This document shows, piece by piece, positions 8,041-30,068 of a stretch of 64,000 bases of DNA. The notes beneath the pieces are model-generated. The model saw only the letters and a program-made list of their open reading frames with translations. It made no database searches and was not told the DNA's origin. Location of the stretch: positions 909 to 64,908 of the forward strand of contig JAWOIQ010000093.1 of the NCBI GenBank assembly GCA_046484585.1. Reading direction: 5' to 3'. Made by a program: the position numbers and the translations under genes. Position 1 is the stretch's first letter; each line of letters starts with the position of its first letter. Origin of the DNA: Desulfurivibrionaceae bacterium (lineage in GTDB: Bacteria > Desulfobacterota > Desulfobulbia > Desulfobulbales > JAGXFP01).

Positions 8041-8532
8041 GATCGTCCAAGACCATTTTTTGTCGCTGTTGATTTTTTCGGCCAAAGCTCCGGACAGGTC
8101 AAATGTGCAGGACGATTATTTCGCCCGGCTGGTTTAGTGCCGGAAGCCCTCGCCCTAATTACACGTAATCCCCCGAAGCATAGTAAGTATTCCGAGCCAC
8201 CGGACTCCTCCCAATATCTTTCCATCACTAATTAGATAAACCGCCAAGATAATCTTAGATATAGCTTGAAATTCGGTTTTGTTTTCAGTAAATTGCAAAA
8301 TCCCGAACAATGATGAATGACAATTCACCAACATTGATACGTGCTATGTTATTAATTAAAGGTATAAAATCGTCTCTTGGCCAAGGTTGTAAAAACGGTG
8401 CGCTTTCACTTTCAGCCATCGATTGTACAACCACACCCAATCCATTTACTGCCCGGCCGGGACATATGCCTCTTAAACAGTTAACCCATTTACTTTTTAT
8501 AAGAATTTATATGTTTTTTAAGGAGCTTAAAA

Positions 8533-9420
8533 ATGAGTGCCAAAATTATCAGTGGCGTCGAAATCGCCAAGGCCATCCGTAAGGAGTTAAAAGAAGAGGT
8601 AGAAGAACTCAAAGCAAAACATAATGTAGTCCCCGGTCTGGTTACCATTCTGGTCGGAGAAGATCCCGCTTCCGTTTCCTACGTTACGGCAAAAAGCAAG
8701 ACCGCCCACGCTCTGGGAATTTATTCGGAGCAGGTGGATATGCCCGCCGATACCACTGAAAAGGAACTGCTGGATCAGATCGACAAGTTCAATAAAGATA
8801 AAAAGATTCACGGCATCCTCGTTCAGTTGCCCCTGCCCAAGCATATCGACGAAGGCAAGGTCCTCTACGCAATTGATCCTGACAAGGATGTCGATGGATT
8901 CCATCCCGTAAATGTCGGCAAAATGGTCCTCGGCGAGCGTTGCTTTCTGCCCTGTACCCCCCATGGCATTCTTCAGATGTTGCAAAGAAGCGGTGTTGAG
9001 ACCAGCGGCGCCGAAGTCGTCATCCTCGGCCGCAGCAACATCGTCGGCAAGCCCATGGCCAACCTGATGCTGCAGAAACGTGCCGCGGGCAACGCCACAG
9101 TAACTCTCTGCCATACCCGAACCAAAGACACTGATTTCCACACCAAACGCGCCGATATCCTGATCGCCGCCGTCGGCGTCCCCAATCTTGTCAAGGCCGA
9201 TCAAGTTAAAGAAGGCGTTGTCATTATCGATGTCGGCGTCAATCGGGTCGGTATGTCTGAAAATGGTAAGGCCATCCTGGCCGGTGATGTGGATTTCGAA
9301 TCCGTCAAGGAGAAGGCTTCCTTCATCACCCCTGTGCCCGGTGGCGTTGGTCCGATGACCATTACCATGCTGATGAAAAACACCGTTCAGGCAGCAAAAC
9401 AGGCTACGGGTCTGCTATAA
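8533..9420 (+). CDS. folD: bifunctional 5,10-methylene-THF dehydrogenase / methenyl-THF cyclohydrolase
   Basis: 295 aa with the motifs PGLVTILVGEDPASVSYV, HGILVQLPLP and PVPGGVGPMT. AAGGAG RBS upstream. Confidence 0.95.
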   Translation: MSAKIISGVEIAKAIRKELKEEVEELKAKHNVVPGLVTILVGEDPASVSYVTAKSKTAHALGIYSEQVDMPADTTEKELLDQIDKFNKDKKIHGILVQLPLPKHIDEGKVLYAIDPDKDVDGFHPVNVGKMVLGERCFLPCTPHGILQMLQRSGVETSGAEVVILGRSNIVGKPMANLMLQKRAAGNATVTLCHTRTKDTDFHTKRADILIAAVGVPNLVKADQVKEGVVIIDVGVNRVGMSENGKAILAGDVDFESVKEKASFITPVPGGVGPMTITMLMKNTVQAAKQATGLL

Positions 9421-9508
9421 CCAGAACCTGCCGGTTTTCCGTTCGCCAGCCTCCGTTTTTTTTCAGGTCTGTGGCATTTTCTTCGGAAAATCCTTATATT
9501 GATACGTT

Positions 9509-9543
9509 CGGCGGATGTATTTGTGCGTCCGGCGGATGTATTT
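9509..9543. promoter_or_regulatory. tandem direct repeat CGGCGGATGTATTT x2 (21 bp register) upstream of cooS
   Basis: Copies at 9509-9522 and 9530-9543, about 45-80 nt upstream of ATG 9589. Candidate operator. Confidence 0.3.
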
Positions 9544-9588
9544 TCTAGTCATACCATTTAAGAATCGACGAAACAATTGAGGTACACG

Positions 9589-11686: not shown

Positions 11687-14320
11687 ATGAAATCGGGTAG
11701 CCGTCTAGAACGGATTCTAAATTCAGGTGGTTTTGCCGTGACCGGCGAACTTGGGCCGCCGAAGAGTGGTGATCCGGAAGTTGTTCGAGAGAAGGCGCGT
11801 CTTCTTAAGGGTAATGTCGATGCCGTCAATATAACCGATTGCCAGACCGCTATTGTCAGGATGTCCAGCATCGGGGCCGGACTGATCACCCTCTCCGAGG
11901 GGGTCGAACCGGTAATTCAGATGACCTGCCGGGACCGGAACCGAATCGGCATGCAGAGCGATATCCTAGGGGCCGCCGCCCTGGGTCTGAAAAATCTGCT
12001 TTGTCTGACCGGCGATCACCAGAAATTCGGCAACCATCCCGGCGCCAAAGGGGTCTTCGACATGGACTCTATCCAGCTTTTGGGGATGGTCAGGGAGATG
12101 CGGGATGAAAAAAGGTTTCAGAGCGGCGACGAAATCAAAAACCACGAACCCCGGCTGTTTTTAGGGGCCGCCGCCAATCCCTTTGCCGAACCGGCCGACT
12201 ACCGGGCAGCCCGCCTGGGCAAGAAAGTTGCCAACGGAGCCGATTTCATCCAGACCCAGATCGTCTACAACGTCGATAAATTCAGGCAGTTCATGAAAAT
12301 GGTCTGCGATCTCGGTATCGACGAAAATGTTCACATCCTTGCCGGGGTTACGCCGCCCCGTTCCATCGGCATGGCCCGCTACATGAAAAATTTCGTCCCC
12401 GGCATGGATGTGCCGGACGAGGTTATCGACCGCCTCCGGGGGGCCGCCGACAAGGAGGATGAAGGCATTAATATTTGTGTCGACATTATCAACCAGGTCA
12501 AGGAGATCAAGGGCATCTCCGGCGTCCATATCATGGCCATCGAATGGGAAAGCGCGGTACCGGAGATCGTCAAACGGGCCGGTCTCGCCGATCGTCCGCG
12601 CTTTGACGATGAGCTTGCCACGGTGAGCCCACCCCGGGATACGCAAGTAGTTATCGGTGAAGCGAAAACCGCCGAGTCAGCCGAAGATAAAGACGAGATT
12701 ATTGCGGCGGCCAGGATCGAGGCGGAGAAGTTGATCGCCGAAGCCAGGGAAGAGGTCGCCAGAATGCGGACCCAAGCCGCTTCGACCGCCACCCCGACAA
12801 CCACTGTTCACGAAAGTATTGAATCAGACGATGCAGGAGAACACGAAATGAACGAAAGAGAACGTCAGATGGCTCTTGAAACGGTCCGGACCGGCCTTGA
12901 TGCCCTTAAAAAGTCCTTCGGACTGTCCAATGATCAATTTGAGGCCCTGGTTAAATTTGCCACTACCGAAGCTATTTTAATGAAGGAACCGCCGACCGGC
13001 GCCGCCGCAGCTTCGGCTCCTGCCACGCCGGCGAAACCGGCCGCTGCCGCGGAAACAACTCCGGCTGCGTCTGCCCGTCCTGCTCAGCCTGCTCCCGCGG
13101 TTGACACGGCCAAGGAAGAGGAAGCCAAGGCAGCTGCCGAATCCGCCAGAAAGGCCGAACTTGAGAAGAAAGCGGTGGAGGAAGCGGCCAGGAAGGCAGA
13201 GCTGGAGAAACAGGCTGCTGCCGAAACCGTTCCGCCGAAAGAGGTTAAAAAGGAAGCTGAACCTTCCGAGGCCAAGAAGAGCGCCGCCAAGCCCTCGGTC
13301 AAAAAGACCGGCGGCGGCGAAGCAGCCGGGGCTACCGCCCTGGCCCATGAGGAAACTCCCCTGGCCGAGCGTTCCACCAAGGTTGCCGAAGATAATTACA
13401 AAGTCAAATACACCGGCAAGATCAGGGAGACCGTTCTCGGCAGCGGTGACCATACCGTCAAGGTCGGCGGCGCCGATACCATGCCGTTCCAGCTCTATGA
13501 AGGCGAGATGCCGAACAAGCCCCTGATCGCCATGGACATTCTCGACTATGAGCCCGATGAATGGCCCGAGACCCTGACCCGCCATTTTGCCGGAGTGATG
13601 GACAACCCCCTGAACTGGGCCCGGAAATGCATCGATGATTATCAGGCCGAAGCCATCTGCCTGTCGCTGATGAGCACCGACCCCAACGGTATGAACCGCT
13701 CCGCCGCCGATGCGGCGAAAATCGCCGCCGAGGTCGTGAATAATATTGAAGTGCCCCTGATCCTCTGGGGCTGTGGCAACAGTGACAAGGATACCGAAAC
13801 CCTGCGGGAGATCACCTCCCTGGTCGGCGACAAGAAGGTCTGCCTGGCGCCGCTGTCCGATGCGAACTATCGCTCGATCGGCGCGACCGCCATGGCCTTT
13901 CATCACCCGATGGTTGCCGCTTCTCCCATTGACGTAAACCTTGCCAAGCAGTTGAATATTCTCCTCGAAAATCTCGGGGTTTCCCTTGATTCGGTCCTGA
14001 TCGATCCGTCCATCGGCGCCCTCGGTTACGGCATTGAATATACTTATTCGGTTATGGAACGGATTCGGCTGGCGGCAATGACCCAGCAGGACGAGAAACT
14101 GCAGGTGCCCTTTATCTGCAATCTCGGGCGCGAGGTCTGGAAGGCCAAGGAAACCAAATTGCCGACCGACGAGCTTCTCGGCGATCAAGAACGACGCGGC
14201 GTTCTGATGGAAGCCATGACCGCTTCCTGCATGCTGGTTGCCGGCGGAGAGGTTCTGATCATGCGGCATCCGCAGGCCATCGCGCTCACCAAGTCCCTGA
14301 TTGACGGACTTGTTGATTAA
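11687..14320 (+). CDS. metF/acsD: fusion protein: MetF-type methylene-THF reductase (N-term), A/P/E/K-rich linker, corrinoid Fe-S protein small subunit AcsD/CdhD (C-term)
   Basis: 877 aa uninterrupted ORF. Residues 1-~300 are MTHFR-family (LTGDH, ADFIQTQIVYN). Residues ~300-560 are low complexity with a duplicated ARKAELEK. Residues ~565-877 are the CdhD/AcsD TIM barrel (LILWGCGN, IDPSIGALGYGIEYTYS). Confidence 0.8.
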   Translation: MKSGSRLERILNSGGFAVTGELGPPKSGDPEVVREKARLLKGNVDAVNITDCQTAIVRMSSIGAGLITLSEGVEPVIQMTCRDRNRIGMQSDILGAAALGLKNLLCLTGDHQKFGNHPGAKGVFDMDSIQLLGMVREMRDEKRFQSGDEIKNHEPRLFLGAAANPFAEPADYRAARLGKKVANGADFIQTQIVYNVDKFRQFMKMVCDLGIDENVHILAGVTPPRSIGMARYMKNFVPGMDVPDEVIDRLRGAADKEDEGINICVDIINQVKEIKGISGVHIMAIEWESAVPEIVKRAGLADRPRFDDELATVSPPRDTQVVIGEAKTAESAEDKDEIIAAARIEAEKLIAEAREEVARMRTQAASTATPTTTVHESIESDDAGEHEMNERERQMALETVRTGLDALKKSFGLSNDQFEALVKFATTEAILMKEPPTGAAAASAPATPAKPAAAAETTPAASARPAQPAPAVDTAKEEEAKAAAESARKAELEKKAVEEAARKAELEKQAAAETVPPKEVKKEAEPSEAKKSAAKPSVKKTGGGEAAGATALAHEETPLAERSTKVAEDNYKVKYTGKIRETVLGSGDHTVKVGGADTMPFQLYEGEMPNKPLIAMDILDYEPDEWPETLTRHFAGVMDNPLNWARKCIDDYQAEAICLSLMSTDPNGMNRSAADAAKIAAEVVNNIEVPLILWGCGNSDKDTETLREITSLVGDKKVCLAPLSDANYRSIGATAMAFHHPMVAASPIDVNLAKQLNILLENLGVSLDSVLIDPSIGALGYGIEYTYSVMERIRLAAMTQQDEKLQVPFICNLGREVWKAKETKLPTDELLGDQERRGVLMEAMTASCMLVAGGEVLIMRHPQAIALTKSLIDGLVD

Positions 14321-14387: not shown

Positions 14388-16592
14388 ATGTCCAAGATTA
14401 TCTGTTCAGCCGCCATAAGGGGCGCTCACAAGATTATCGATATGGCCGAAGAGAAGTACGAAGAAGCCATCAAGAAATACGGTCCGGAACAGGAAGTCGC
14501 TTTTCCGAATACCGCCTACTTTCTGCCTGTGATTTATTCAATGCTGGGCGCCAAGGTAACCAATCTGGGCGACATGAAGGATATTTTCCTTGAAACCCGC
14601 AAATTACTGCCTCCCCAGGTGACGGACAATCTCTGGCTGCCATACCTGGCGCCCGCCCTCGACGCCGGCATGGCGACCTTTTTCGCCGAGGAGATGTTTG
14701 AGGCGATCCGTTATCTGGAGAACGGCGAATTCTACACCCAAACCGAGGATCCCTCGGCCGAGAATCTCTGGCTGGGCGCCGCGGACGACGTTATCTTCCG
14801 GAAGAGGGGGGTTGAATTTGTCGACGGCACCGCTCCCGGTTTCGCCGCCATCATGGGAGCGCCGCCCAACAAGGACGTGGCCAGCAAGATTGCCTTGGAA
14901 CTTCAGGAAAAAAATCTCTACATCTTCATGCACGACGAATCAGACGGAGTGCGGATGCCCGAACAGCTGGTCAACAACGATGTCCAGGTCGGCTGGGGGA
15001 CTCGGCTGGTGCCTTTCGGCCCGACCTATACCTCCGCGGTTTTCGCCATCGGCTTTGCCTGCCGGGTGGCCATGGCCTTCGGCGGCATCAAACCGGGCGA
15101 TTACCGGGGCAATCTGATCTATAACAAGAACCGCACCTTTGCTTTCGTCATGGCTTTCGGTCCGGTTTGCGACGAATGGTACGCCAATGCGGCCGGCGCC
15201 ATCAACTGGGGTTTCCCGACCATCTCGGACTACGATATTCCCGAAGTCCTGCCCACCGGAATCTGCACTTACGAACACGTGGTCAGCAACATCCCCCACG
15301 ACGAGATCGTCCAGAAGGCCATTGAAGTCCGGGGCCTGAAGGTCAATATCACCAAGATCGATATTCCGATGTCTTTCGGTCCCGCCTTTGAGGGTGAACG
15401 GATCCGTAAGGACGATCTGTTCATGGAATGCGGCGGCGGCCGGACCAACGGCGTCGAAGTCCTGATCTCCAAGGATCTCGACGAGGTGGAGGATGGCCGG
15501 GTTACCGTGGAAGGACCCGACATTAAAGATATTGAAGCAGGCCAGAACCTGCCGCTCGCCATACTGGTCGAAGTAGCCGGCCGCGAGATGCAGTCGGATT
15601 TCGAGCCGATTCTCGAACGCCAGTTCCATCACCTGATCAACTATATCCAGGGCATCATGCACATGGGCCAGCGTAATATCATGTGGGTCAGAATCGGCAA
15701 GGCCGCGGTCGAAAAGGGCTTCTCTTTCGAACATTTCGGCCGGGTCCTGCACGGCAAGCTCCACCAGGAGTTCGGTGCGATTGTCGATAAGATCCAGGTC
15801 AAGATCTATACCACCGATGAAAAGGTCCAGGAAATTACCGATCTGGCCCGCAATGTCTACGATGAACGTGACAAACGGCTGGGCAGCATGACCGACGAAA
15901 CCGAGGAAGTGTTCTACAGCTGCACCCTGTGCCAGTCTTTCGCTCCCAGTCATGTCTGCATTATCACCCCGGAAAGGATCGGGATGTGCGGCGCTTATAA
16001 CTGGCTGGACGGCAAGGCCTCCTACCAGATCAACCCGACCGGCCCCAACCAGCCGATCGAAAAGGGTGAGTGCCTTGACGAGGCCCTGGGCGTTTTCAAA
16101 GGTATTAACGATTTCGTCTCCCAGGCCTCCCGTGGCGCGGTAACCGATCTGTCCTGCTACTCGCTGATGACCGATCCGATGACCGCCTGCGGCTGTTTCG
16201 AAGCGATTGCCGCCATGCTCCCCCAGTGCAACGGCATCATGGTGGTCAACCGCGATTACATGGGCATGACCCCGAGCGGCATGAAGTTCACCACCCTGGC
16301 TGGCATGGCCGGCGGCGGCGCCCAGACTCCGGGTTTCATGGGGGTCAGCAAGCATTATATGACCAGCCGCAAGCTGTTCATGGCCGAAGGCGGTCTTGAG
16401 CGCGTGGTCTGGCTGCCCAAATCAATGAAGGACGAGATTGCCGACAAGCTCAAGGAATGTTGCGCGGAGATCGGCAAACCGGAACTCTTCGACATGATCG
16501 CCACCGAGGAGAACGGCACCACAGAGGAAGAAATCCTCAAGTTTCTCCAGGAAAAAGGCCATCCCGCCCTCTCCATGGAATCGGTCGTTTAA
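14388..16592 (+). CDS. acsB: acetyl-CoA synthase (A-cluster subunit of CODH/ACS)
   Basis: 734 aa with the A-cluster Cys region FYSCTLCQSFAPSHVCIITPERIGMCGAYNWLDGKA and a later CGCFE motif. AGGAG RBS. Confidence 0.92.
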   Translation: MSKIICSAAIRGAHKIIDMAEEKYEEAIKKYGPEQEVAFPNTAYFLPVIYSMLGAKVTNLGDMKDIFLETRKLLPPQVTDNLWLPYLAPALDAGMATFFAEEMFEAIRYLENGEFYTQTEDPSAENLWLGAADDVIFRKRGVEFVDGTAPGFAAIMGAPPNKDVASKIALELQEKNLYIFMHDESDGVRMPEQLVNNDVQVGWGTRLVPFGPTYTSAVFAIGFACRVAMAFGGIKPGDYRGNLIYNKNRTFAFVMAFGPVCDEWYANAAGAINWGFPTISDYDIPEVLPTGICTYEHVVSNIPHDEIVQKAIEVRGLKVNITKIDIPMSFGPAFEGERIRKDDLFMECGGGRTNGVEVLISKDLDEVEDGRVTVEGPDIKDIEAGQNLPLAILVEVAGREMQSDFEPILERQFHHLINYIQGIMHMGQRNIMWVRIGKAAVEKGFSFEHFGRVLHGKLHQEFGAIVDKIQVKIYTTDEKVQEITDLARNVYDERDKRLGSMTDETEEVFYSCTLCQSFAPSHVCIITPERIGMCGAYNWLDGKASYQINPTGPNQPIEKGECLDEALGVFKGINDFVSQASRGAVTDLSCYSLMTDPMTACGCFEAIAAMLPQCNGIMVVNRDYMGMTPSGMKFTTLAGMAGGGAQTPGFMGVSKHYMTSRKLFMAEGGLERVVWLPKSMKDEIADKLKECCAEIGKPELFDMIATEENGTTEEEILKFLQEKGHPALSMESVV

Positions 16593-16807: not shown

Positions 16808-18163
16808 ATGGCTTTAACCGGAATACAGATCCTCAAAATGCTTCCCAAGAAAAACTGCGGGGAGTGTGCGATTCCGACCTGTCTCGCTTTCGCTATGAAA
16901 GTAGCCGCCGGCCAATCCGAGATCGGCGAGTGTCCTTATGTAAGCGACGAGGTCAAGGAACAGATAGGTGAAGCATCGGCTCCTCCGATCAGGACCGTTA
17001 AAATCGGCAGCGCCGACGCCCCCTTCACCATGGGCGGCGAGACCTGCCTCTACCGCCATGAAAAAAGGTTTGAGAATCAGACCGGACTCGGTGTTCTGGT
17101 TACCACCGAAATGGCTGACGCCGATGTCGACGGCCGGGTTGAGCGCTTTAATTCCCTGCGCTACGACCGGGTCGGCGTCGAGATGAAGGCTGATCTTGTC
17201 GCCGTAAAGGATGCCAAATCGGATGAAGCCTCCTTTGTCGCCCTTACCAAAAAAGTTCTGGAAGGCGCCAAGGATGCCAAACTGATATTGATCAGCGACA
17301 GTGCCGCCCATCTGACCGCGGCCGCCAAGGCCTGCGGCGATCGGAAACCGCTGCTTTACGGGGCGACCCTCGATAACGCCTCCGAAATGGCCGGGGCCGC
17401 GAAAGAGACCGGCTGTGCCCTGGCGGTTAAAGGCGCCAATCTCGACAACACCGTCGAAATCACCGAAAAGCTCATGGGGGAAGGTCTCAAGGATCTGGCC
17501 ATCGATACCGGCGCCCGCACCATCCGCGCCTCCCTGGAAGATAACATTGTGGCCCGCAAGGCGGCGGTTACCAAAAAGTTCAAGCCGCTCGGTTTTCCGA
17601 CCGTCAATTTCCCCTGCGAGATGACCGACGATCTGATGATGGAGTCAATGATCTCCTCGGTTTTGATCGCCAAGTATGCCGGCATCATCATCCTTTCCGA
17701 TCTGCAGGGGGACACCCTGTTCCCGCTCTTCCTGGAAAGGCTCAATATCTTTACCGATCCCCAGCGGCCGATGGTGGTCGAGGAGGACATCTATCCCGTT
17801 AATGGTCCGGATGAGAATTCTCCGGTTATTATTACCTGCAACTTCTCGCTGACCTACTTTATCGTTTCCGGCGAAGTTGAAAGCAGCAAGGTGCCGACCT
17901 GGCTGCTGATCAAGGATACAGAGGGTCTCTCGGTTCTTACTGCCTGGGCCGCCGGAAAATTCGGCGCCGATATGATCGCTCAGTTTATGAAAAAATCGGG
18001 AATCGCCGACAAAGTCAAGCATCGCGACTTGATTATCCCCGGTTACCTGGCCTCCATGAAAGGCGAATTGGAAGAAGAGCTGCCGGACTGGACCATCCTC
18101 ATCGGTCCTCGGGAAGCGGGTCATCTCCCCGCATTCTTGAAGGAATGGAAACCGGCCAACTGA
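16808..18163 (+). CDS. acsC: corrinoid iron-sulfur protein large subunit
   Basis: 451 aa with the N-terminal [4Fe-4S] motif LPKKNCGECAIPTCLAFA and a CdhE/AcsC-like body. GGAGG RBS. Confidence 0.9.
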   Translation: MALTGIQILKMLPKKNCGECAIPTCLAFAMKVAAGQSEIGECPYVSDEVKEQIGEASAPPIRTVKIGSADAPFTMGGETCLYRHEKRFENQTGLGVLVTTEMADADVDGRVERFNSLRYDRVGVEMKADLVAVKDAKSDEASFVALTKKVLEGAKDAKLILISDSAAHLTAAAKACGDRKPLLYGATLDNASEMAGAAKETGCALAVKGANLDNTVEITEKLMGEGLKDLAIDTGARTIRASLEDNIVARKAAVTKKFKPLGFPTVNFPCEMTDDLMMESMISSVLIAKYAGIIILSDLQGDTLFPLFLERLNIFTDPQRPMVVEEDIYPVNGPDENSPVIITCNFSLTYFIVSGEVESSKVPTWLLIKDTEGLSVLTAWAAGKFGADMIAQFMKKSGIADKVKHRDLIIPGYLASMKGELEEELPDWTILIGPREAGHLPAFLKEWKPAN

Positions 18164-18292: not shown

Positions 18293-21200
18293 ATGAGTAT
18301 ATTTTTACACATGAATATCGAAATTAATGGAAACAGCATAACGGCGGAAGAGGGGGTCACCATCCTCGCAGCCGCAGAGCGTTCGGAAATATATATTCCC
18401 ACCCTTTGCAGCGTCAAAGGCAGGAATTCCGAGGTCCCCTGCGAACTGTGCTGCGTTGAAGTTGCCGGTCGGGATGGTCTGGTCCGGGCATGCGAAACTC
18501 CCATCGAGGAAGGCATGTCAATCACCACCGATTCGAAAGCGATTACCGAACATCGCCAGGCCAAACTGGCCATTCTCGCCGAGACCCATTTCGGGGACTG
18601 CAAGGCGCCCTGCAACCTTACCTGTCCCGGCCAGATCAATGTTCAGGGCTATATTGCCCATGTCGCCAAGGGAGAATACGAGGAAGCCGTCCGCCTGATT
18701 ATGGAACGCAATCCTTTCCCGTTTTCGGTGGGCAGGGTCTGTCCCCGTTTCTGTGAAACCAGATGTCGGCGGATCCTGGTCGATGAACCGGTCTCCATCA
18801 ATCATCTCAAAAGATTTGTCGCCGACTGGTGCATGACCAACAAGATCGACCTGAAAATCGGGCGCGACAAGCCGACCGGCAAGAAAATCGCCGTTGTAGG
18901 AGGCGGGCCGGCCGGTTTGAGCGGCGCCTATTATCTGTCGCGCAAGGGTCATGATGTTACGGTCTTCGAAGCCGCCCCCAAACTGGGCGGCATGCTCCGC
19001 TACGGCTTACCGGAGTATAAAATTCCCAAGGATATCCTCGACTACGAGATCTCCACGATTCTGCGAACCGGCATCTCGGTTAAGCTCAATCAGCGCTGGG
19101 GCGAAGATTTCAATCTTCAGAACCTGCGTGACCAAGGTTATGACGCCATTTTATTGACCATCGGCGCGCCCGTCGACGAACCCCTGGATATCCCGGGATC
19201 CTCGTTGAGCAATGTTCTTCCGGCCATAAATTTCCTGAAGAACATCAATAGCGGCAAGAACATCGATTACGGCCGGCGTGCCGCCGTAATCGGCGGTAAC
19301 AACGTTGCCATGGAAACGGCCCGCTCCCTGATCAGAGCCGGGGTTGAAACCGTTACCGTGATCTATCCGCGGACCAAGACCGAGATGGCGGCCAATCAGC
19401 GCAATATCCGTGAGGCCGAAAAGGAAGGCGTCCAGTTTCTGGTGATGGCTACCCCGGTCCAGATTTCGCCGGCCGATAGCGGTCTTGATGTAGAACTGAT
19501 GCGAATGAAGCTGGGTGAACCTGACGAGAAGGGCGTGCGGAATCCCGAAGCTATTCCCGGTTCATCCAACATCATCCAGGTCGATACGGTTATTCATTCC
19601 CTGGGCCAGAAGGCCTGCGATAATGCCAGCTTTAAAGGGGGTTCTCTTGAAGAGTCCCTGGAGTTGACCCCGACCAACAATATTAAAGCCAATCCCCGTG
19701 ATTTTCTTACCAACCAGGATGGCATCTACGCGGCCGGTGACGCGACCAGCGGCCCCCGTTCGGTTATCCAATCGGTGGTGGCCGCCCGCCGCGCGGCAAA
19801 CAACATAAACAGCCAGGTGATGGGGGTAGAGAAGGAGCCCGCCGACAGCCGCTTCAATTTCAGCCGGGGCCGTTCCTTCGACGATGTCGATCTGCGTAAC
19901 TTCGAGGGCATTAAGGTCAAGCTGCGGGAGAAGATGCCGGAAAGGCCGCCGGAGACCTCCACCCAGGACTTTGACGAGGTCAAACTCGGTTTCACCGAAA
20001 AGATGGCGCTGCGCGAGGCGAAACGTTGCCTGTCCTGCGGCTGCAACGCCTATGACCGGTGCGACCTGAAGCGCTTATCCGAAGATCACAATATAAACCT
20101 CAACAAGACCGGCATGGGCAGGGAACCGGTTTATGCCAGAGATAATTCCCATCCCGTTATTCAGATCGATCTCAACAAGTGTATTTACTGCCAGCGCTGC
20201 AAGAACAGCTGCGATTACAAGGCCATCGACCTTTCCGCCGAATCCTTCGACGTCAAGGGCCGCCCGGAGAACATCTCTTTCAGGTTCAACGAGAACTGCG
20301 TGAATTGCGGCGAATGTGTCGACAACTGCTCCACCGGCGCCCTTATCAAGAAGGACCGCCTGGTCCCGATCACCAACGAAGAGGTGAGGGAGGTTCGTTC
20401 GACCTGCCCCTATTGCGGGGCCGGCTGCCAGATCATCCTCAAGGTCAAGGGCAACACCCTGATGGAGGTCGATGCCGATCCCGATCTTGCCCCCAACTAC
20501 GGCGCCTTGTGCGTCAAGGGCCGTTTCGGCCAGAAGTTTGTTCAGCACCGCGACCGGTTGACCAAACCATTAATCCGGCAGGGCGGCCAGCTTGTCGAAA
20601 CCAGCTGGGATGAGGCCCTGAACGTGGTGGCCAAGAAATTTTTCGACCTCAAGGCCATGTATGGATCGGATTCGATCGCCGGTTTCAGCTGCGCCCGGGC
20701 CACCAACGAAGAAAATTACCTGATGCAGAAATTCATGCGGACGGCGATCGGCACCAACAATATCGATCACTGCGCCCGGCTCTGACACGCTCCCACGGTG
20801 GCCAGTTTGGCCCTCACCTTCGGAAGCGGCGCAATGACCAACTCCATAGCCGACATGAAGCAGACCGACCTCTTCTTCATGATCGGCAGCAATCCCGACA
20901 CCAGCCATCCGACCATCGGCCTCCGGGTCCATCAGGCCATTGACCGGGGCGCCAAGCTCGTCGTGGTAGATCCCCGCAGAACCAGGCTGGCCGAGCGGGC
21001 CGACCTCTGGATCCGGATCAAACCGGGAACCGATGTGGCCTTCATGAACGGGATGATGAGCGTCATCCTCGCCGAAGATCTCTGGGACAAAAAATTCGTC
21101 GAGGAGCGGACCGAGGATTTCGATTACCTGAAAAGCGTGGTCGAAAAATACTCGCCCGATATCGTCGAGGAGATTACCGGGGTATCCGAGGAGCAGCTGC

Positions 21201-22420
21201 GCCAGGCCGCGAGAATGTACGCCGCCGAGGGACGGCACGCGATCTACCACGGCATGGGCATCACCCATTACGTGACCGGCACCGACCGGGTCAAGAGTAT
21301 CGCCAACCTGGCCATGCTCTGCGGCAAGGTCGGCCAGGCCGGCGGCGGCTGCAACCCCTTGCGGGGCCAGAACAATGTGCAGGGGGCCTGCGATATGGGC
21401 GCCCTGTTCAATACCCTGCCCGGCTACGGCAGCTTCGATAACAGCGAGCTTTTCAAGACCTTCGAAAAGGCCTGGAAAGTCAAGCTGCCCCGGCGGCCCG
21501 GCAAACCGGCCACCGAGGTCTGGGACAATGTCCTCAAAAAAGATATCCGCGGTCTTTACGTGTTCGGGGAGGATCCGGTAGTAGCTGATGCCAATATCTC
21601 CCATGTCCGGCAGGCCTTGGAAGAGGTTGATTTCCTGGTGGTTCAGGATATCTTCCTGACCGACACCGCCCAGATGGCCGATGTGGTCCTGCCCGCCGCC
21701 TGCTATGCCGAGAAGGAAGGGACTTTCACCTGTACCGAACGGCGGGTGCAGCGGGTCCGCAAGGCGGTGGAGCCGCCCGGCGAGGCCCGGCCCGACTGGC
21801 GGATTTTTTGCGAACTTTCGAAAAAGATGGGCTATGAGATGGACTACGCTTCGGCCGAGGATATCTTCGAGGAGATCCGCACCCTCCTGCCCCAGTATAA
21901 GGGAATCACCTATAAACGCCTTGACGAGGTCGGTCTGCAATGGCCGGTACCCAGTGAAGATCATCCGGGCACCGAGGTATTGCACACCGAATCGTTTACC
22001 AGGGGCAGGGGACTGTTTATCCCGGAGGAGTATATCCCCCCGGTCGAGCTTCCCGATGACGAGTATCCGATGTCCTTTACCACCGGCCGGGATCTGTCCA
22101 GGTATAACTTCAGCAGCATGACCGGCAAGACTCCGGAGATCGATGAGATCAGTCCGGAATGTTTTGCCGAGATCACACCCGTTGATGCAGAACGGCTTGG
22201 CATCAAGGATAAGAGCCGGGTTCGCCTGGTATCGCGGCGCGGATCGGTAGAGATGCGGGCCAAGATCACCGATCGTACCCAGGAGGGTACGGTATTCGCG
22301 ACCTACAACCATCTGGAAACCCTGGTCAACCTGCTTACCCTGGACGCCCTCGATCGTCTTTCCAGAACGCCCGAATACAAGCTATGCGCGATCCGTGTGG
22401 AAGTAGTACCCGAAAATTAG
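18293..22420 (+). CDS. fdhA: selenocysteine-containing formate dehydrogenase alpha subunit fused to N-terminal 2Fe-2S and GltD-like NAD(P)H/FAD oxidoreductase domains (Sec at TGA 20783-20785)
   Basis: ORFs 18293..20785 and 20798..22420 share a frame. Read-through gives [30 protein letters not shown], the FDH Sec motif. GxGxxG VVGGGPAGLSGA, 4Fe-4S motifs and a molybdopterin domain are present. ATG 18311 is an alternative start. Confidence 0.85.
20797..20818 (+). promoter_or_regulatory. candidate SECIS hairpin for fdhA UGA
   Basis: GGT-GGCCA [GTT] TGGCC-(CTC bulge)-ACC, starting 12 nt after the TGA. Confidence 0.55.
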
Positions 22421-22470: not shown

Positions 22471-25400
22471 ATGGCAAAAGCAAAGCAAAAGAAAACCGGC
22501 GCCCCAGCCAGGAAATCCGCCAAGACCGCTGCCCAATCGGGTAGCATGATGGTGGTCGGCGGCGGCGTCGCCGGTGTCCAGGCGGCTCTAGATCTCACCG
22601 AGCTCGGCTATTACGTCTATCTGGTCGAAAAAAGCGCGGCGGTCGGCGGGGCCATGGCCCAGCTGGATAAAACTTTCCCGACCAACGACTGTTCGCTCTG
22701 AATTCTCGCACCTAAATTGGTTGAGGCCGGTCGGTCTCCAAATATCGAAATTCTGAGTAACGCTGATTTGCTTTCCCTGTCGGGCAAGCCGGGTAATTTC
22801 AAGGCCGAGTTACAACTGCGGCCCCGTTATATCGATGCGGATAAATGTACGGCCTGCGGGCTTTGCACTACATATTGCCCCCGGCATCTGGCCGATTCCT
22901 TTAACGAAGGGCTCGATCTGACCAGGCCGATCCATATCGATTATCCCCAGGCGGTTCCGGCCTCCTATTTCATCGATCCCGAGGCATGTCTGTATCTCAA
23001 GCACGACACCTGCCAGATCTGTGTGCCGACCTGCCGCAGCAACGCGATCGATTTCAGCCAAAAGCCCAAAAAGATCAGCCTCGATATTGGGGCGGTGATC
23101 ATGGCTCCCGGTTTCGGCCGGGTGCCGGATGAGGCCCTGACCCAATACGGTTACGGCCAGCATCCCGACATTGTCACCAGCATTGAATTCGAGCGCCTGC
23201 TCAATCCGTCCGGTCCCTTTGAGGGCGAGGTCCGCTGTCTGTCCGATAAACGCCATCCCAAAAAGATCGCCTTTATCCAGTGCGTCGGCTCCCGCGATCT
23301 GGGTTGTGGAAACGGCTATTGCTCGTCGGTCTGCTGTATGTACGCGATCAAGGAAGCGATGGTGGCCAAGGAGCACGACCCCGAATGCGAGATCACCATC
23401 TATTACATGGATATCCGCACCCAGGGCAAGGACTTCGACGCCGCCAGGATCAAGGCCGAGGAACATTACGGTATAAAGTTTGTCAGGGCCAGGGTTGCCG
23501 ATGTTATTCCCTGGAAGAAAAATCTGAAGCTGACCTATTCGACCATGGACGGCGTCCACCGTTTTGACGCCTATGACATGGTGGTCCTGGCGGTGGGTCT
23601 CGACTCTCCGACCGATGCCCGGGCGCTTGCCGATATTACCGGCGTCGAACTGGATAAATATGATTTTTGCAAGACCGGATTTTTCGATCCCCTGGCCAGC
23701 AGCCGGGACGGCGTCTACGCCATCGGCGCCTTTCAGGGCCCCAAGGATATTCCCGAAAGCGTCACCCAGTCCAGCGCCGCGGCCGGCATTTCCGCCGGGC
23801 AGATCAGGGCCGGGCGCGGCAAGGATATCGTTATCAAGGAATATCCGACCGAGAAAGCCCTGAAAGCCGCGGATGAGCCCCGGATCGGCGTTTTTGTCTG
23901 CCACTGTGGGATCAATATCGCCGGCGTGGTGGATGTCCAGAAGGTCGATGATTACACCAAGGACATGGAAGGCGTGGTCTATCACGCCCAGAGCTTGTAC
24001 AGCTGTTCCCAGGACGCCCAGAAGGTGATCAAGGAGATGATCCAGCTCCACGATCTGAACCGGGTGGTTATCGCGGCCTGTTCGCCCCGAACCCATGAGC
24101 CGCTGTTTCAGGAGACCCTGAAAGACGCGGGGCTGAACCGCAGTCTTTTTGAAATGGTCAATATCCGCGACCACTGCTCCTGGGTCCACGCCAACGAGCC
24201 GGATAAAGCCACTGATAAATCGATGGATCTGGTTCGGATGGGTATTGCCAAGGCGCGTCATATCCAGCCGCTGCCCGAGCAGACCGTGCCGGTAACCGAC
24301 AAGGCAATTGTCATTGGCGGCGGCATCGCCGGGATGACCGCGGCCCTGAATCTCGCCGACCAGGGGTTTCAAACGACGATCATCGAAAAGAGCGCCCAGC
24401 TCGGCGGGCATCTGCTTGATCAGCGCTATACCCTGTCGGGCGAGAACATGACCGACTATCTTAAGAAGGTCACCGACCAAATTGCCAAGAATAAAAAAGT
24501 CGATGTGCTTACCAACAGCGAACTGGCTGAGGTGGGCGGTTTCGTCGGGAACTTCTCTTCGGTGGTCAGGTCCGGCAAGGGCAGCAAGGTCTCGGAGCAG
24601 ACCATCGACCACGGGGTGATAGTAGTCGCCACCGGCGGCCGCGAACATGTGCCGGCCACGGTGCTGGGCAAAAAAGTTCCGCAATCGGACAAGTTCATTA
24701 CCCAGAAGGAGTTGGAGATCAGGTTGGCCGACAAAGGTAAGAATCGGGCTCCGAAATCCGTGGTCATGATCCAGTGCGCCGGCTCCCGGGGCGACGATCT
24801 TGCCTATTGCAGCAAGACCTGTTGCACCCAGGCCGTCAAAAACTCGCTTAAGATCAAGGAGATCAATCCGGATTCCCAGGTTATCGTGCTCTATCGGGAC
24901 ATGCGGACCTACGGCTTTGCCGAGGACGCTTACCGCGAAGCCCGGGAAAAGGGAGTGATCTTCATTCCATATTCCATGGATAAAAAACCGAGCCTCAGCG
25001 CCAAGGGAAGCAAAGCCGAAGTCGCTTTTTACGACCCGATTCTTCAGGATGATGTTACCATTAATCCCGACCTGGTCGCCCTGAGCGTCGGAACCGTTCC
25101 CGAGAGCACTGCGGAACTGAGCAGGCTCTTGAAGGTGCCGGTAAATGCCGATGATTTTTTTCTTGAGGCCCATGTCAAACTGCGGCCGGTGGAAATGCCG
25201 GTTGCCGGGGTCTTCCTTTGCGGCCTGGCCCATTCGCCGAAACCGCTGGATGAGATCATTGTCCAGGCCCAGGCGGCGGCGGCCAAGGCGTCCATACCCC
25301 TGGTCAAGGGACAAGTCAGCGTCGATCCGATTGTTTCCAGCATCGATAAGGACAAGTGCATCGGCTGCCGGCTTTGCGCCACTCTCTGCCCTTATCAGGC

Positions 25401-25578
25401 CATTGAAATGGTAAAGGTCGACAAGAAACCGAAAGCCGAGACCGTGGTGGCCTCCTGTAAGGCCTGCGGGATCTGCGCCGCGCATTGCCCGACTTTTGCC
25501 ATATCGATGGGCGGTTTCACCAATGAACAGATTACTTCCCAGATCGAGGCCTTTGGCGAGGCCCTAGAGGAGGCTTAA
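22471..25578 (+). CDS. hdrA: selenocysteine-containing large HdrA-like flavoprotein with tandem HdrA modules and C-terminal ferredoxin domain (Sec at TGA 22699-22701)
   Basis: ORFs 22471..22701 and 22717..25578 share a frame. Read-through gives [21 protein letters not shown], where canonical HdrA has DCSxCIL. Two GxGxxG sites ([18 protein letters not shown]). C-terminal [12 protein letters not shown] and [12 protein letters not shown] motifs. Confidence 0.85.
22723..22738 (+). promoter_or_regulatory. candidate SECIS hairpin for hdrA UGA
   Basis: GAGGCC [GGTC] GGTCTC, a 6 bp stem with one G-U pair, starting 22 nt after the TGA. Confidence 0.5.
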
Positions 25579-25582
25579 CAAT

Positions 25583-26188
25583 ATGAGCAAGGAAGAATTC
25601 AACCCCAAAATTCTCGGTTTTCTCTGCAACTGGTGCTGCTATGCAGCCGCGGATGCAGCCGGGGTTTCCCGATATCAGTATCCGCCCAATCTGCGGACCA
25701 TCAGGATAATGTGCACCGGCCGCCTTGATCCCGCCTTCGTGATGCGCGGTCTGGTCGAAGGTGCAGCCGGCATTTTCACCGGCGGCTGACAACTCGGTGA
25801 ATGCCATTACCAGGTTGGTAATTATGACGCAATGGGAGTAAATGGTCTGATCAAGAAAGTGCTGACCGAGACGGGTTTGGATCATCGACGATTCGATCTC
25901 AAATGGGCCTCCGCCGCCGAAGCGCCGCGCTTCGTCAAACTGATCACCGAATTTACAGCCAGGATTAAAGAACTCGGCCCCTTAGGCGAGGCGGAAGGGA
26001 TCAGCCCCGAAGAGGCAAAAAACCGGGCTGAAAAAGCGCTGGCCATGGTCAGTGACCGTAAATTGCGGATGGGTTTCGGCAATCTGACCAAGACCCTGCG
26101 CAAGGAAGTGCCTAATCTGAGCGATAAAGCAATCGACCAGGCCATCGATGAAAAATTGAGCAAGACTCTTTCATCCCTGGCCGATTAA
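25583..26188 (+). CDS. mvhD: selenocysteine-containing MvhD/FlpD-like hydrogenase iron-sulfur (delta) subunit (Sec at TGA 25787-25789)
   Basis: ORFs 25583..25789 and 25832..26188 share a frame. Read-through gives GIFTGG-U-QLGECHYQVGN, where the MvhD family has GCxxGxCHY. N-terminal LCNWCCY motif. GAGGAGG RBS. Confidence 0.85.
25806..25822 (+). promoter_or_regulatory. candidate SECIS hairpin for mvhD UGA
   Basis: ATTACCA [GGT] TGGTAAT, a perfect 7 bp stem starting 17 nt after the TGA. Confidence 0.6.
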
Positions 26189-26752: not shown

Positions 26753-26933
26753 TATCAAATACGTTTTCAAATCGTCCCCGCCGATTTATCTCATCGTTCG
26801 CCAAAACCGCTTTCTTCGCCCTCGCCAACTCCACCCTGATCTCGATCAATCAGCCCCGCCGCGATCTCATCCTGCTCGTTATTATTTTAGCTGCTGACTG
26901 CGTTGCGACTACCCCCGATGACTCCCATGTTGG

Positions 26934-27209
26934 TTAAAAATCTTTTTCTTTTAATTTGCCGGTGACATACTTGTGAAGAACGCTGGATATGAGGGTTTGA
27001 TATGGAATGCCTTCTTCCAGCGCTTTTACCTGTATGGCATGCACATCCTTGCTGGACATGCGGATATTTACTCTGCTGTCTTTTTTGAAGGTGGATTTTG
27101 CCATTTGTCGGTAATGTGACATTTTTTCTTTTTTGCCCTTAACGGGTTGCCACTCATTTTTTTCGAATGACTCTAATAATTCTTTTTCTTCCGCTGTGAA
27201 ATCAATCAT
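26934..27209 (-). CDS. BrnA-like (CopG/RHH family) antitoxin, orphan
   Basis: Track ORF is 26934..27224; ATG 27209 is preferred (MIDFTAEEKELLESFEKNEWQPV...). The tail RVNIRMSSKDVHAIQVKALEEGIPYQTLISSVLHKYVTG is typical of BrnA-type antitoxins. Confidence 0.7.
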   Translation of the reverse strand: MIDFTAEEKELLESFEKNEWQPVKGKKEKMSHYRQMAKSTFKKDSRVNIRMSSKDVHAIQVKALEEGIPYQTLISSVLHKYVTGKLKEKDF

Positions 27210-27294
27210 TGTTTTCACCTCCACGTAAATATTGCTTTGTTGCTTTTCTGCTGGGGATGATAGTTTTTAAAAAAACCTCGTTTTCAACTTGCGG
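27202..27294 (-). pseudogene. C-terminal remnant of a BrnT (DUF497) toxin gene
   Basis: A 30-codon frame, PQVENEVFLKTIIPSRKATKQYLRGGENND*, ends in an ATGATTGA overlap with the brnA start. IIPSRKATK resembles the BrnT C-terminal IISARKATK motif. An in-frame stop lies immediately upstream (27295-27297). Confidence 0.45.
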
Positions 27295-27328
27295 TCAATG
27301 TGCAGCGCTTGGTTCGGCCTCGCCGTAA

Positions 27329-27754
27329 TTATGATTTTTCCCTGTGTATCTCGTCATGGCAAACCGTACATACGGTAATCAAATTGCTTTCCGTGTTGTC
27401 GCCGCCCTTGGCATGGTGCTTTTTGTGGTGTAACTCCAAGTGACGCGGGTCTGATCTATTCCATTCTTCGTGGGTCCAATTGCATAGGGTGCATTTGTAA
27501 CTATCCCTCCGAAGGACTTCTCTTTTTACCGGGTCGGGTATAAGCCGGTCATGTTCAGGGCTTTGGCGATCGGCCTCAAGTAAATACATACCTACTTCAA
27601 GATCCGGGCGGCCGGTATTTTGGGTGACGACAGGCCAACCAAATTCAGTGCGTAACTCTCTGACTCTTCTTGCCCACTCAGATCTATCTTTTGCTAAATA
27701 TTTCAATTCTTCGCCGGTTACTTTTTGCCCGACGTTAGCCCTTAGATATTTCAA
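27329..27754 (-). CDS. small HNH endonuclease with N-terminal putative DNA-binding domain
   Basis: 141 aa with the HNH motif CTLCNW...HLELHHKKHHAKGGDNTESNLITVCTVCHDEIH. Confidence 0.8.
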   Translation of the reverse strand: MKYLRANVGQKVTGEELKYLAKDRSEWARRVRELRTEFGWPVVTQNTGRPDLEVGMYLLEADRQSPEHDRLIPDPVKREVLRRDSYKCTLCNWTHEEWNRSDPRHLELHHKKHHAKGGDNTESNLITVCTVCHDEIHREKS

Positions 27755-27853
27755 TATTTTGTCGCGGACGGAAATGTTTTCTCTTCTAATTTCATTGGCA
27801 AGGTTCCAACGATGTGCATATTTTATGAACTGTGAAGTAAAAGCTTGAGCTTG

Positions 27854-28111
27854 CTAGAAACCTAGCTCTCCATCTTCAATTTGTAATGCTTCAGAAAGGG
27901 CTAATGCATTTCGGAGCATAAATGAACCGTAAGCGGTAGCCAGCTCAAGTAAGTGTTCGGCAGCGCCTGGGCTCCATTCTCCTTTGCTGACAAGTAAATC
28001 CATAATCTCGCCATCTGCGAATTTCGATCGCTCCGATATTTTGCTCACTGATTGTTTGAGCAAAGTATGGTACTCGTCGATAAGGCCATTAATCTCAGTA
28101 CATGTATTCAT
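27854..28111 (-). CDS. hypothetical protein (85 aa), no recognisable domain
   Basis: ORF lies 23 nt downstream of the HNH_2 gene on the same strand and is AT-rich like its neighbours. Coding status is inferred from context only. Confidence 0.45.
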   Translation of the reverse strand: MNTCTEINGLIDEYHTLLKQSVSKISERSKFADGEIMDLLVSKGEWSPGAAEHLLELATAYGSFMLRNALALSEALQIEDGELGF

Positions 28112-28134
28112 ATCCGTTCCCTGATGATCGTTTA

Positions 28135-28932
28135 TTATTCATTAAAGACAGTATGTTGGTGCCATTCAAGATAAGATGTCAATGGTAGGAATTTTCGGGG
28201 TTTGATAATTTCCGCGCCATGATAGAAACAAATCAGATCGCTTGTTCTCCTGTCTCCAGAGGTTAGTAGTTTTGATGAGACGGCGACACGCAATTGGTTT
28301 GTTATTGTAAGAAACCCACGATCAAACAAACGATCAAATGTAGCACTTAGGCATAAACCGTTATGTGGATCCGTTCGATGCTCTTCAGAAACACTCCATG
28401 GTATAATGTGGCTCGCCACCAGACATTCTTTAATCCGTAATCCTGTAATACAACATGTATTTTCGTAACTACTGAGAATTGCCTCACGAAAAAATGATTG
28501 ATGGGTACGTGTTTTTTGAGGCGTGATTTTCTCAGATGGTCCTTTGGGGCGATTTACATCAGCCTGAATTTCTTCTTTCGTTATTGTCCTTAAACCCAAC
28601 TCGCCTTTCAACTGCTCAGCTTCTGAGACAAGCTGATTCCAATCTTTATGAAATTCTTCCCATATTTTACGATCCAGTTTGCTGGAGTGAGAAAGCCCAG
28701 ACACTTTTTGTCTGCTAAGCTCTGGATCAAGAGAACCAAAATTACCTAACTTCCTAGCAATGCTTGCCGGTGAACGTTTTATAAGATTAGCGAGTTCAAT
28801 TACATCAGGATTGTTTGCTTTGGTTTTCTTGAAAGGGATACGGCAGTAAAGATCAAACGCGAGAATCAATTCTTCGCGCGTCCAAGGAGCACCATATTTT
28901 TCTGGGTTGCCATGTATAATCATTTGTCTCAA
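28135..28932 (-). CDS. HNH_2-type (COG3183-like) putative restriction endonuclease
   Basis: 265 aa. N-terminal GAPWTREELILAFDLY...SPASIARKLGNFGSLDP. C-terminal CCITGL...ASHIIPWS...DPHNGLCLSATFDRLFDRGFLTI. Confidence 0.75.
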   Translation of the reverse strand: MRQMIIHGNPEKYGAPWTREELILAFDLYCRIPFKKTKANNPDVIELANLIKRSPASIARKLGNFGSLDPELSRQKVSGLSHSSKLDRKIWEEFHKDWNQLVSEAEQLKGELGLRTITKEEIQADVNRPKGPSEKITPQKTRTHQSFFREAILSSYENTCCITGLRIKECLVASHIIPWSVSEEHRTDPHNGLCLSATFDRLFDRGFLTITNQLRVAVSSKLLTSGDRRTSDLICFYHGAEIIKPRKFLPLTSYLEWHQHTVFNE

Positions 28933-30068
28933 TGGCTAATTATATTGGTCAATTTAGTTCTATGTGTTGGGGAGCTGTCGGGAAAACTTTGAAATCGTGC
29001 TGCTTCCCTGTGAGTGATTGGCCTGTGCTGCTCGGGGTGCAAATAGCGGCCTTTTTCAGGTTTATAGAATTCGGTGCGTATCGTAACGGAAGGCCTGTTC
29101 CACCAGAGTCGGCCAAACAAATCAGTTCCTCCTGATTGTTTCCGAATCCAACATTGAGGCGTTAACTCAGGAGCAATACGTTGTAAGTCAAAACGATTCA
29201 TCCCTTCACGAGGTATTGCCCTATATCTTTTCCGACTGAGTTCGGTTGGATTCCTCCCGAAGTGTAAATCCAACGGAGGATCAATATTTCTAATTTCAGT
29301 CCCTTCCGGAGAAGGTAAATCAGCAATAGCGTCTTTTACTGTTTTCCATTTAGGGGGTGTTGACAGATATTCCTCCCTATTGAAGGGAAGTGTTAACGCC
29401 TTTCCGTTGCCATTGGGATTAAAATGAGTTTTTCGGGGTGGAAACAAAATGGATGGATCTGCGAATTTACAACCGATTATGAAAGCTCTGGTACGAGTTT
29501 GAGGAACCCCGTAATCCGCAGCAATTAATTTGTCCTGCCAGACTTGGAAGCCGAGAGACCTTGCTGCTTCGACAATTTCACCATTCTCAAAGGTCCCAAG
29601 CAACTGAGGAACATTCTCCATGACAAAAATTGATGCCTCAGATCTTTCGACAACCTCTAAATAAGGTCGCCACAACTCTTTTCGTGGGTCATTTTCACGA
29701 TTTTTGTTTAAGAGACTGAAACCCTGGCAAGGAGGTCCACCAATTACAACATCAGCTTTGGGGATTTCAATTTTGCTTTGTTTGAGTATTTCGACAATGT
29801 CGCCTGCAACACTATGTGGGCCGAAATTTTCATTGTACGTGTTAACGCAAAATTGATTAAAGTCGTTTGCCCAAACGGATTGAAAAGGTTGTCCAAAAAC
29901 CTCGGAGAAACCTAACGACATCCCGCCCGCCCCTGAAAATAGGTCTATAAGGCGATATCGGTGCGGATTTTGTAGTAGCTCACCTGAGCATCGAGAATGG
30001 TAAGTCGCTTCGTCTTCTTTTAAAATAAAAGATTTGTCTATTTCTATCGTATTTTCAGTTTGATACAT
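28929..30068 (-). CDS. DNA (cytosine-5)-methyltransferase with divergent/short C-terminus
   Basis: 379 aa with motif I DLFSGAGGMSLGF, motif IV GGPPCQGFS, motif VI ENV and motif VIII QTRTRAFIIG. The C-terminus is ...FQSFPDSSPTHRTKLTNIISH* (TNII where GNAV is expected). ATGA overlap with the HNH_2 gene. Confidence 0.85.
   Translation of the reverse strand: MYQTENTIEIDKSFILKEDEATYHSRCSGELLQNPHRYRLIDLFSGAGGMSLGFSEVFGQPFQSVWANDFNQFCVNTYNENFGPHSVAGDIVEILKQSKIEIPKADVVIGGPPCQGFSLLNKNRENDPRKELWRPYLEVVERSEASIFVMENVPQLLGTFENGEIVEAARSLGFQVWQDKLIAADYGVPQTRTRAFIIGCKFADPSILFPPRKTHFNPNGNGKALTLPFNREEYLSTPPKWKTVKDAIADLPSPEGTEIRNIDPPLDLHFGRNPTELSRKRYRAIPREGMNRFDLQRIAPELTPQCWIRKQSGGTDLFGRLWWNRPSVTIRTEFYKPEKGRYLHPEQHRPITHREAARFQSFPDSSPTHRTKLTNIISH

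Follow-up and report, generated by a model that had tools for sequence, protein, structure and literature searches.

Among the described enzymes closest to the one considered here, the NADP-dependent tungsten- and selenium-containing formate dehydrogenase (FDH) of Moorella thermoacetica carries selenocysteine (Sec), belongs to the Wood-Ljungdahl pathway and uses NADPH, and it is made of two separate subunits, not one fused polypeptide. Among bacterial selenoproteins FdhA is the most widespread, and the Deltaproteobacteria are selenoprotein rich; fossil Sec insertion sequence (SECIS) structures that persist after Sec-to-Cys conversion have been reported for FdhA (PMC1794560). Two further established Sec families, HdrA with its CxxU motif and FrhD/MvhD, occur frequently in this group (PMC1794560, PMC9312934). 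A fused arrangement is known from StnC of the Sporomusa ovata StnABC transhydrogenase, which combines a 2Fe-2S domain, a GltD-like NADPH/flavin adenine dinucleotide (FAD) domain and a catalytically inactive FdhF-like domain (PMC10482914). Here we analyze one stretch of the genome of a Desulfurivibrionaceae bacterium, 64 kb in length (the window, whose positions serve as coordinates throughout), in which a StnC-like module is joined to an intact FDH. We hold with high confidence that 18293 (or 18311)..22420 is a single formate dehydrogenase/CO2 reductase gene of about 1370 residues, in which the UGA at 20783-20785 is recoded as Sec.

The list of open reading frames (ORFs) for the window divides this gene into two parts, 18293..20785 (plus strand, 830 aa) and 20798..22420 (plus strand, 540 aa), which share a frame and are parted by a single TGA at 20783-20785 and four sense codons, after which GTG 20798 opens the second ORF. 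The DNA at the junction reads GCC CGG CTC TGA CAC GCT CCC ACG GTG GCC, and translation of 18293-22420 in one frame meets only one internal stop; sequence and translation thus confirm the in-frame split given in a preliminary description of this DNA. The complete coding sequence of the fused GltD-like/FdhA selenoprotein lies on the plus strand at 18293..22420, ends with TAG at 22418-22420 and would specify 1375 aa, including Sec at residue 831, with an alternative ATG at 18311 (18311..22420, plus strand) yielding 1369 aa. Most homologues begin with MNIEING, equivalent to ATG 18311, so the product has either 1375 or 1369 aa; no obvious Shine-Dalgarno sequence accompanies ATG 18293 or ATG 18311, and the choice of start codon is ambiguous. 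Of the 1375-residue polypeptide proposed earlier, the single chain is upheld by a domain that runs across the TGA and by the relatives of the gene, and the exact length is left uncertain by the start.

The split falls at the catalytic Sec/Cys column. When aligned to Escherichia coli FdhH (1aa6, E 9e-179), the in-frame UGA (20783..20785, plus strand), our proposed codon for residue 831 in the column of the molybdenum or tungsten ligand, coincides with X140, which is Sec140, in the string ccarvXhgpsvagl. The same column holds X (Sec) in the F420-dependent FDH 9t1s_L and Cys in 7qv7_S and 7bkb_D. The residue that follows the TGA, His832, aligns with FdhH His141, and the R of NPLRGQNNVQG aligns with FdhH Arg333 (NPVRGQNNVQG). 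Assignment of the TGA to the Sec/Cys motif of molybdopterin formate dehydrogenases, made at first from the letters alone, therefore survives comparison with FdhF/FdhA homologues, with no displacement from the catalytic column. Among the 120 best clusters of protein homologues examined, 71 (68-97% identical, 810-877 aa) stop at ...[DE]HCAR[LY], 68 of these exactly at ...DHCARL, and 49 (45-58% identical, ~1370 aa) are continuous, with Cys at the catalytic column in all 49.

Read through the UGA, the protein has the following domain order. Pfam places an N-terminal 2Fe-2S domain, Fer2_4, at aa 8-81 (18314..18535, plus strand), followed by a GltD/NfnB-like module at aa 102-501 (18596..19795, plus strand) that consists of a 4Fe-4S region, Fer4_20 (aa 102-184), and an FAD/NAD(P)H-binding domain, Pyr_redox_2 (aa 198-501), and that matches the PDB chains 8oh5_C (StnC), 5jca_L (NfnB) and 6s6s_G (GltD). 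A 4Fe-4S dicluster domain (aa 629-683) and Molybdop_Fe4S4 (PF04879, aa 700-752) occupy 20177..20548 on the plus strand. The catalytic domain, molybdopterin oxidoreductase (PF00384, aa 755-1178; 20555..21826, plus strand; E 1.3e-86), is matched in one stretch over profile positions 1-353, the whole profile, and crosses the UGA at residue 831; the dinucleotide-binding domain Molydop_binding (PF01568, aa 1261-1366; 22073..22390, plus strand) follows. As PF04879, PF00384 and PF01568 all score above the Pfam cut-offs, the FDH domain set is complete. In a PDB search with Cys substituted for U at residue 831, the C-terminal 680 aa (aa ~695-1375) match solved formate dehydrogenases of the FdhF type along their whole length, among them 7bkb_D of M. 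hungatei. The N-terminal 690 aa find StnC as the best match (8oh5_C, E 6e-144), together with 9bov_A, and the small subunits of NfnB and GltD next.

Could the TGA nevertheless be a genuine stop? Two subunits would then result: a flavo-iron-sulfur protein of 830 aa, and a C-terminal FDH fragment of 540 aa whose translation would start from GTG 20798 or from a codon downstream of it. Public gene callers do split close relatives at this point, where the proteins of ~824 aa bear names such as 'FAD-dependent oxidoreductase', '(2Fe-2S)-binding protein' or 'formate dehydrogenase major subunit', and the GTG lies four codons past the TGA. Yet the break would fall inside a single Pfam molybdopterin domain, between the residues that flank the metal ligand, and the GTG encodes the Val of a conserved TVASLA motif, where there is neither a conserved start nor a preceding ribosome-binding site. 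The 49 more distant homologues are continuous, and three relatives carry Cys codons in place of the TGA. These relatives come from a scan of 80 related loci, mostly metagenome-assembled genomes (MAGs) labelled Desulfurivibrionaceae, Desulfobulbaceae, Desulfobulbales, Thermodesulfobacteriota or Ca. Electrothrix, the nearest of which are 98% and 97% identical. The active-site motif occurs 76 times in 75 of the 80 loci, and its codon is TGA in 73 (not independent samples), TGT in two, TGC in one, and never TAA or TAG. After the TGA, the frame stays open for ~541-550 further codons in most of the 73 occurrences. A look in close relatives for a true stop with separate downstream initiation thus came out in favor of read-through.

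Stop codon usage in the window sharpens this point. Thirty confident genes end in TGA (13), TAA (13) or TAG (4); since TGA accounts for just 13 of 30 stops, its use in 73 of 73 stop-containing relatives would be very unlikely for a real stop, and we regard two separate subunits as highly improbable. Genome-wide reassignment of TGA was also considered and is ruled out, because TGA is an ordinary stop in these 13 genes, among them acsC directly upstream.

The relatives with a Cys codon are informative in their own right. In those near the Sec forms, L081 (6482), L060 (8470) and L072 (6812), the codon is TGT or TGC and the hairpin that follows it is intact, which fits a recent Sec-to-Cys conversion that left a fossil SECIS. 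L081 keeps the order acsB-acsC-FDH-hdrA-mvhD, and there the FDH alone has Cys, HdrA and MvhD still being split by the gene caller at their TGAs. Locus L059 (8467) also has TGT or TGC at the FDH codon, with one broken pair in its hairpin. In a distant Cys clade, represented by L082 Dissulfuribacter and L083 Thiovibrio, other residues occupy the site of the hairpin (VTGLRIA and VSGLRIA), and L082 no longer has the stem, one pair of which is broken in L083. L082 (Dissulfuribacter thermophilus MAGO01000011) has the gene order hdrA-flpD-FDH-selB, with HdrA and FlpD called unsplit; its selB (8247-10232, 661 aa, with GTP_EFTU and WHD_2nd_SelB domains) adjoins the Cys-type fused FDH on the downstream side. 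A Desulfobacterales MAG contig, L057, has two TGA-type FDH catalytic motifs, at 4104 and 8455, about 4.3 kb apart, which look like tandem paralogous selenoprotein FDH genes.

That the UGA is decoded as Sec, and not simply passed, is suggested by the nucleotides that follow it. In a search of 201 nt, a SECIS-like element at 20780..20838 (plus strand) matches Rfam SECIS_3 (RF01989) over its full length, model positions 1-59, and its UGA coincides with that of the model (57.9 bits, E 2.4e-13); the element shares with that family the apical stem and GUN loop. Its core hairpin, at 20797..20818 (plus strand), has an upper stem formed by 20800-20804 and 20808-20812 and an apical GUU loop at 20805-20807; in the minimum-energy fold, the partners of 20797-20804 are 20808-20812 and 20816-20818, and 20797, the first base of the stem, is 11 nt past the A of the UGA. 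In 45 distinct 59-nt sequences from related loci, the five pairs of the upper stem (columns 21-25/29-33) are formed in every sequence. Pair 21/33 is G-C in 41, U-A in two, A-U in one and G-U in one, with changes on both sides in three; for pair 24/30 the counts are 41 C-G and four A-U, the four having changes on both sides, and for pair 25/29 they are 30 A-U and 15 G-U. In the apical loop, G26 never varies, and conservation of U27 is at least 90%. Columns 21, 24, 30 and 33 fall on the third codon positions of Val, Ala, Leu and Ala, and the covariation is therefore not imposed by the protein. Third-position entropy is 0-0.27 bit over codons +4 to +10 after the UGA and 0.45-1.5 bit in the flanks (ten upstream codons and codons +11 to +13); such low synonymous variation argues for selection on the nucleotide sequence itself. 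The preliminary description had placed a hairpin with an apical GTT loop at 20797-20818, just after the UGA where a bacterial SECIS would sit, and fold, Rfam match and synonymous-site covariation all agree with it.

Several observations weigh against a Sec codon and need to be set beside this evidence. The SECIS_3 score is below the family's gathering threshold of 63 bits; at that threshold, Rfam finds no match in the whole window and no SECIS match in the loci of nine relatives. Part of the score necessarily comes from conserved coding sequence, and the lower helix of the Rfam model is weakly supported, with 60% of its cells paired in this clade. In folding energy, the hairpin does not stand out from shuffled sequence (z = -0.30, 62 of 200 shuffles being as stable; z = +0.80 in a second shuffle test). 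Because shuffled sequence folds as well, hairpin energy alone is uninformative, and the significance of the hairpin therefore rests on the Rfam match and the covariation. As for the decoding machinery, NCBIfam scans found no selA, selB or selD among 40 ORFs scanned in the window, ARAGORN found no tRNA, including tRNA-Sec, in the window and no tRNA-Sec in 60 related loci, and a tblastn search of the collected locus DNA with the SelB of L082 returned only the match to itself. In those 60 loci selA, selB and selD did not come to light either, and SelB was met only beside the Cys-type FDH of Dissulfuribacter. Given its sequence, we consider that the element resembles SECIS_3, and would function like it, but that the curated cut-off leaves it outside formal membership.

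A second alternative is read-through of the UGA without Sec, for instance through local recoding or near-cognate insertion of Trp, Cys or Arg, which would give a full-length, selenium-free enzyme. The missing Sec genes in the window are compatible with it, as is the fact that Cys works at the catalytic position in many homologues. It would not account for a conserved stem-loop of bacterial SECIS position and form, which matches SECIS_3 and in whose loop the G is invariant and the U nearly so, nor for the two genes that follow. An HdrA-like gene at 22471..25578 (plus strand), which appears in the ORF list only as a 76-aa ORF and a 953-aa ORF, gives 1035 aa when read through a TGA at 22699-22701 (CSL-U, a CxxU motif); this TGA aligns with the second Cys of CSMC in the HdrA structures 8rvv and 5odc and is conserved in 43 related loci. 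Behind it, an MvhD/FlpD-like gene at 25583..26188 (plus strand) gives 201 aa on read-through of a TGA at 25787-25789 (GIFTGG*QLGECHY); in MvhD 8rvu_F the counterpart of this TGA is the first Cys of GGChigdCHY, and the TGA is conserved in 36 related loci. Downstream of each TGA is a hairpin: one at 22723-22738 (GAGGCC-GGUC-GGUCUC), invariant in 34 of 35 distinct HdrA sequences, and one at 25806-25822 (AUUACC-AGGUU-GGUAAU), with stems invariant in 29 of 29 distinct MvhD sequences, in both cases amid flanking synonymous sites that vary. Rfam returned nothing meaningful for the HdrA UGA region. When TGAs with long open frames on either side were sought across the entire window, the only credible sites were 20783, 22699 and 25787. 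Three selenoprotein families known from the literature thus all have TGA at their known Sec positions, and the conserved in-frame TGAs at Cys positions of the adjacent HdrA and MvhD genes provide indirect evidence that the host organism would decode Sec. SelB homologues are also numerous in Thermodesulfobacteriota, as a database search shows at the level of the phylum, not of this genome. Read-through without Sec is, in our estimate, as improbable as a genuine stop.

Least credible of all is a pseudogene, or a sequencing or assembly error in a Cys-type gene, for although TGA is one base from TGT or TGC and the downstream frame is shortened in three MAG relatives, the TGA is found in 73 independent assemblies, mostly with an intact downstream frame, strong amino acid conservation and a hairpin under selection. 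The three relatives concerned, L017 (5281), L021 (8470) and L046 (8473), have just 90, 74 and 202 open codons after the TGA, compared with ~545, and are probably assembly frameshifts or decaying copies.

Taking the UGA as a Sec codon, we envisage decoding by analogy with E. coli fdhF. A ribosome arriving at the UGA at 20783 would find, 11 nt further on, the hairpin whose apical loop exposes G and U. Through binding of SelB-GTP-Sec-tRNA(Sec) by this hairpin, Sec831 would be incorporated, and the ribosome would proceed to the TAG at 22418-22420. In the folded enzyme, Sec831 would ligate the molybdenum or tungsten of a bis-pyranopterin guanine dinucleotide (bis-PGD) cofactor, and His832 and the equivalent of Arg333 would form the formate site. 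Fusion of the FDH module to an NAD(P)H module points to electron transfer between NAD(P)H and CO2/formate via an internal Fe-S chain. From this architecture and the structure of StnC (PMC10482914), electrons would reach the FAD of the GltD-like module by way of the 4Fe-4S chain and then move on to NAD(P)+, or would run the opposite way for CO2 reduction. Sec insertion, SelB dependence, NAD(P)H specificity, catalytic direction and the choice of molybdenum or tungsten are all features that we infer.

The FDH gene closes an acetyl-CoA (Wood-Ljungdahl) pathway cluster. Upstream lie folD (8533-9420), the carbon monoxide dehydrogenase gene cooS (9577-11592), a MetF-AcsD fusion (11687-14320), acsB (14388-16592) and acsC (16808-18163). 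The fusion is a single 877-aa ORF, with a methylenetetrahydrofolate reductase (MTHFR)-like part at aa ~4-300 and an AcsD/CdhD corrinoid Fe-S protein subunit at aa ~570-876; an MTHFR and CdhD fusion is also one gene call in L081. In Desulfurivibrionaceae and related Desulfobulbales, the FDH, HdrA-like and MvhD-like genes are always adjacent at the end of this cluster. Right after the Wood-Ljungdahl and selenoprotein genes of the window, a small block of genes on the minus strand (26900-30068) includes an ORF of ~141 aa (27329-27754) that by eye suggests an HNH-type endonuclease, a gene similar to those for restriction endonucleases that bind phosphorothioated DNA (28135-28932) and one for a cytosine methyltransferase of the Dcm type (28929-30068); this block may be a mobile restriction-modification island. 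Just downstream of the FDH gene in a cable-bacterium MAG (L043, Ca. Electrothrix gigas QYLO01000037) lies a match to group II intron D1-D4-6 (10199-10422, 171 bits, well above the gathering score).

What the window holds, then, is very probably a Sec-containing FdhA-family gene of Desulfurivibrionaceae/Desulfobulbales, of a kind already known. Nothing in it is unexpected for the field, and its recognition amounts to an ordinary annotation fix. A search of the literature for this fusion in Desulfurivibrio, in cable bacteria or in a Wood-Ljungdahl context found nothing specific. Of mild interest are the fusion of a StnC/NfnB-like NAD(P)H module to an intact FDH domain and the conserved run of three candidate selenoprotein genes, FDH, HdrA-like and MvhD-like, that ends the Wood-Ljungdahl cluster. 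There is also a practical consequence: as public calls split the gene at its TGA, metabolic reconstructions can miss or mis-type the first enzyme of the Wood-Ljungdahl methyl branch, and the HdrA-like and MvhD-like genes of Desulfurivibrionaceae/Desulfobulbales genomes are likewise open to mis-annotation. If our reading of the FDH gene is correct, CO2 fixation or acetyl-CoA oxidation would be selenium dependent in these organisms, and they would possess a self-contained, NAD(P)H-linked CO2 reductase in one Sec polypeptide of ~150 kDa.

How does this enzyme compare with those already characterized? Relative to E. coli FdhH (FdhF; 1aa6/1fdo), the archetypal Sec-containing Mo-bisPGD FDH, the catalytic module is alike end to end, including Sec140, the His and Arg333, and in both genes the SECIS lies immediately 3' of the UGA, within the coding sequence. 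The two differ in that a 690-aa N-terminal 2Fe-2S/GltD-like/Fe-S module is fused here, in that the context is a Wood-Ljungdahl cluster and not formate hydrogenlyase, and in that the putative SECIS is of a SECIS_3-like type, unlike the fdhF hairpin. Among solved structures, the best match to the catalytic module is FdhF of the hydrogen-dependent CO2 reductase of Thermoanaerobacter kivui (7qv7_S, E 6e-214), and the active-site strings are nearly identical: DHCARLCHAPTVAGLA. The T. kivui protein, in contrast, has Cys and is a separate subunit wired to a hydrogenase, with no NAD(P)H module fused.

The electron-bifurcating Fdh-Hdr-MvhD complexes of methanogens (7bkb; 9sfi/9t1s) contain homologous chains for all three genes of the run, FDH, HdrA-like and MvhD-like, matched respectively by 7bkb_D, 7bkb_A and 7bkb_F and by 9t1s_L, 9sfi_A and 9sfi_K, and the FDH of 9t1s also has X (Sec) at the same column. 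Differences are the bacterial host, a double-length HdrA (1035 aa) and an FDH with its own NAD(P)H module. No hdrB/hdrC or fdhB was identified next to the FDH, HdrA-like and MvhD-like genes. By analogy, it is conceivable, though on balance doubtful, that the products of these three genes, the HdrA-like one being of double length, assemble in the bacteria into a single complex for electron bifurcation or confurcation, in which CO2/formate, NAD(P)H and ferredoxin would be coupled. Such a complex would be a counterpart of the methanogen supercomplexes, and its FDH the active form of an architecture that is dead in StnC.

StnC itself offers a parallel in overall design. The order of modules is the same in StnC (8oh5_C) and the related 9bov_A, and residues 4-675 of 8oh5_C align with residues 7-688 of our query at the E value given above. 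The FdhF-like domain of StnC is shortened and inactive, whereas the one encoded here is full length, with the predicted Sec, the His, the Arg and the dinucleotide-binding domain. Genes for StnA/StnB (HydBC-like) were not seen among the window ORFs, the neighbors of the FDH gene being acsC and the HdrA-like gene. Identity with StnC was considered and is ruled out by the complete FDH domain with its catalytic residues and by the acsC and HdrA-like flanks. Judged by these sequence features, the fused FDH is better described as a putatively catalytically competent relative of StnC.

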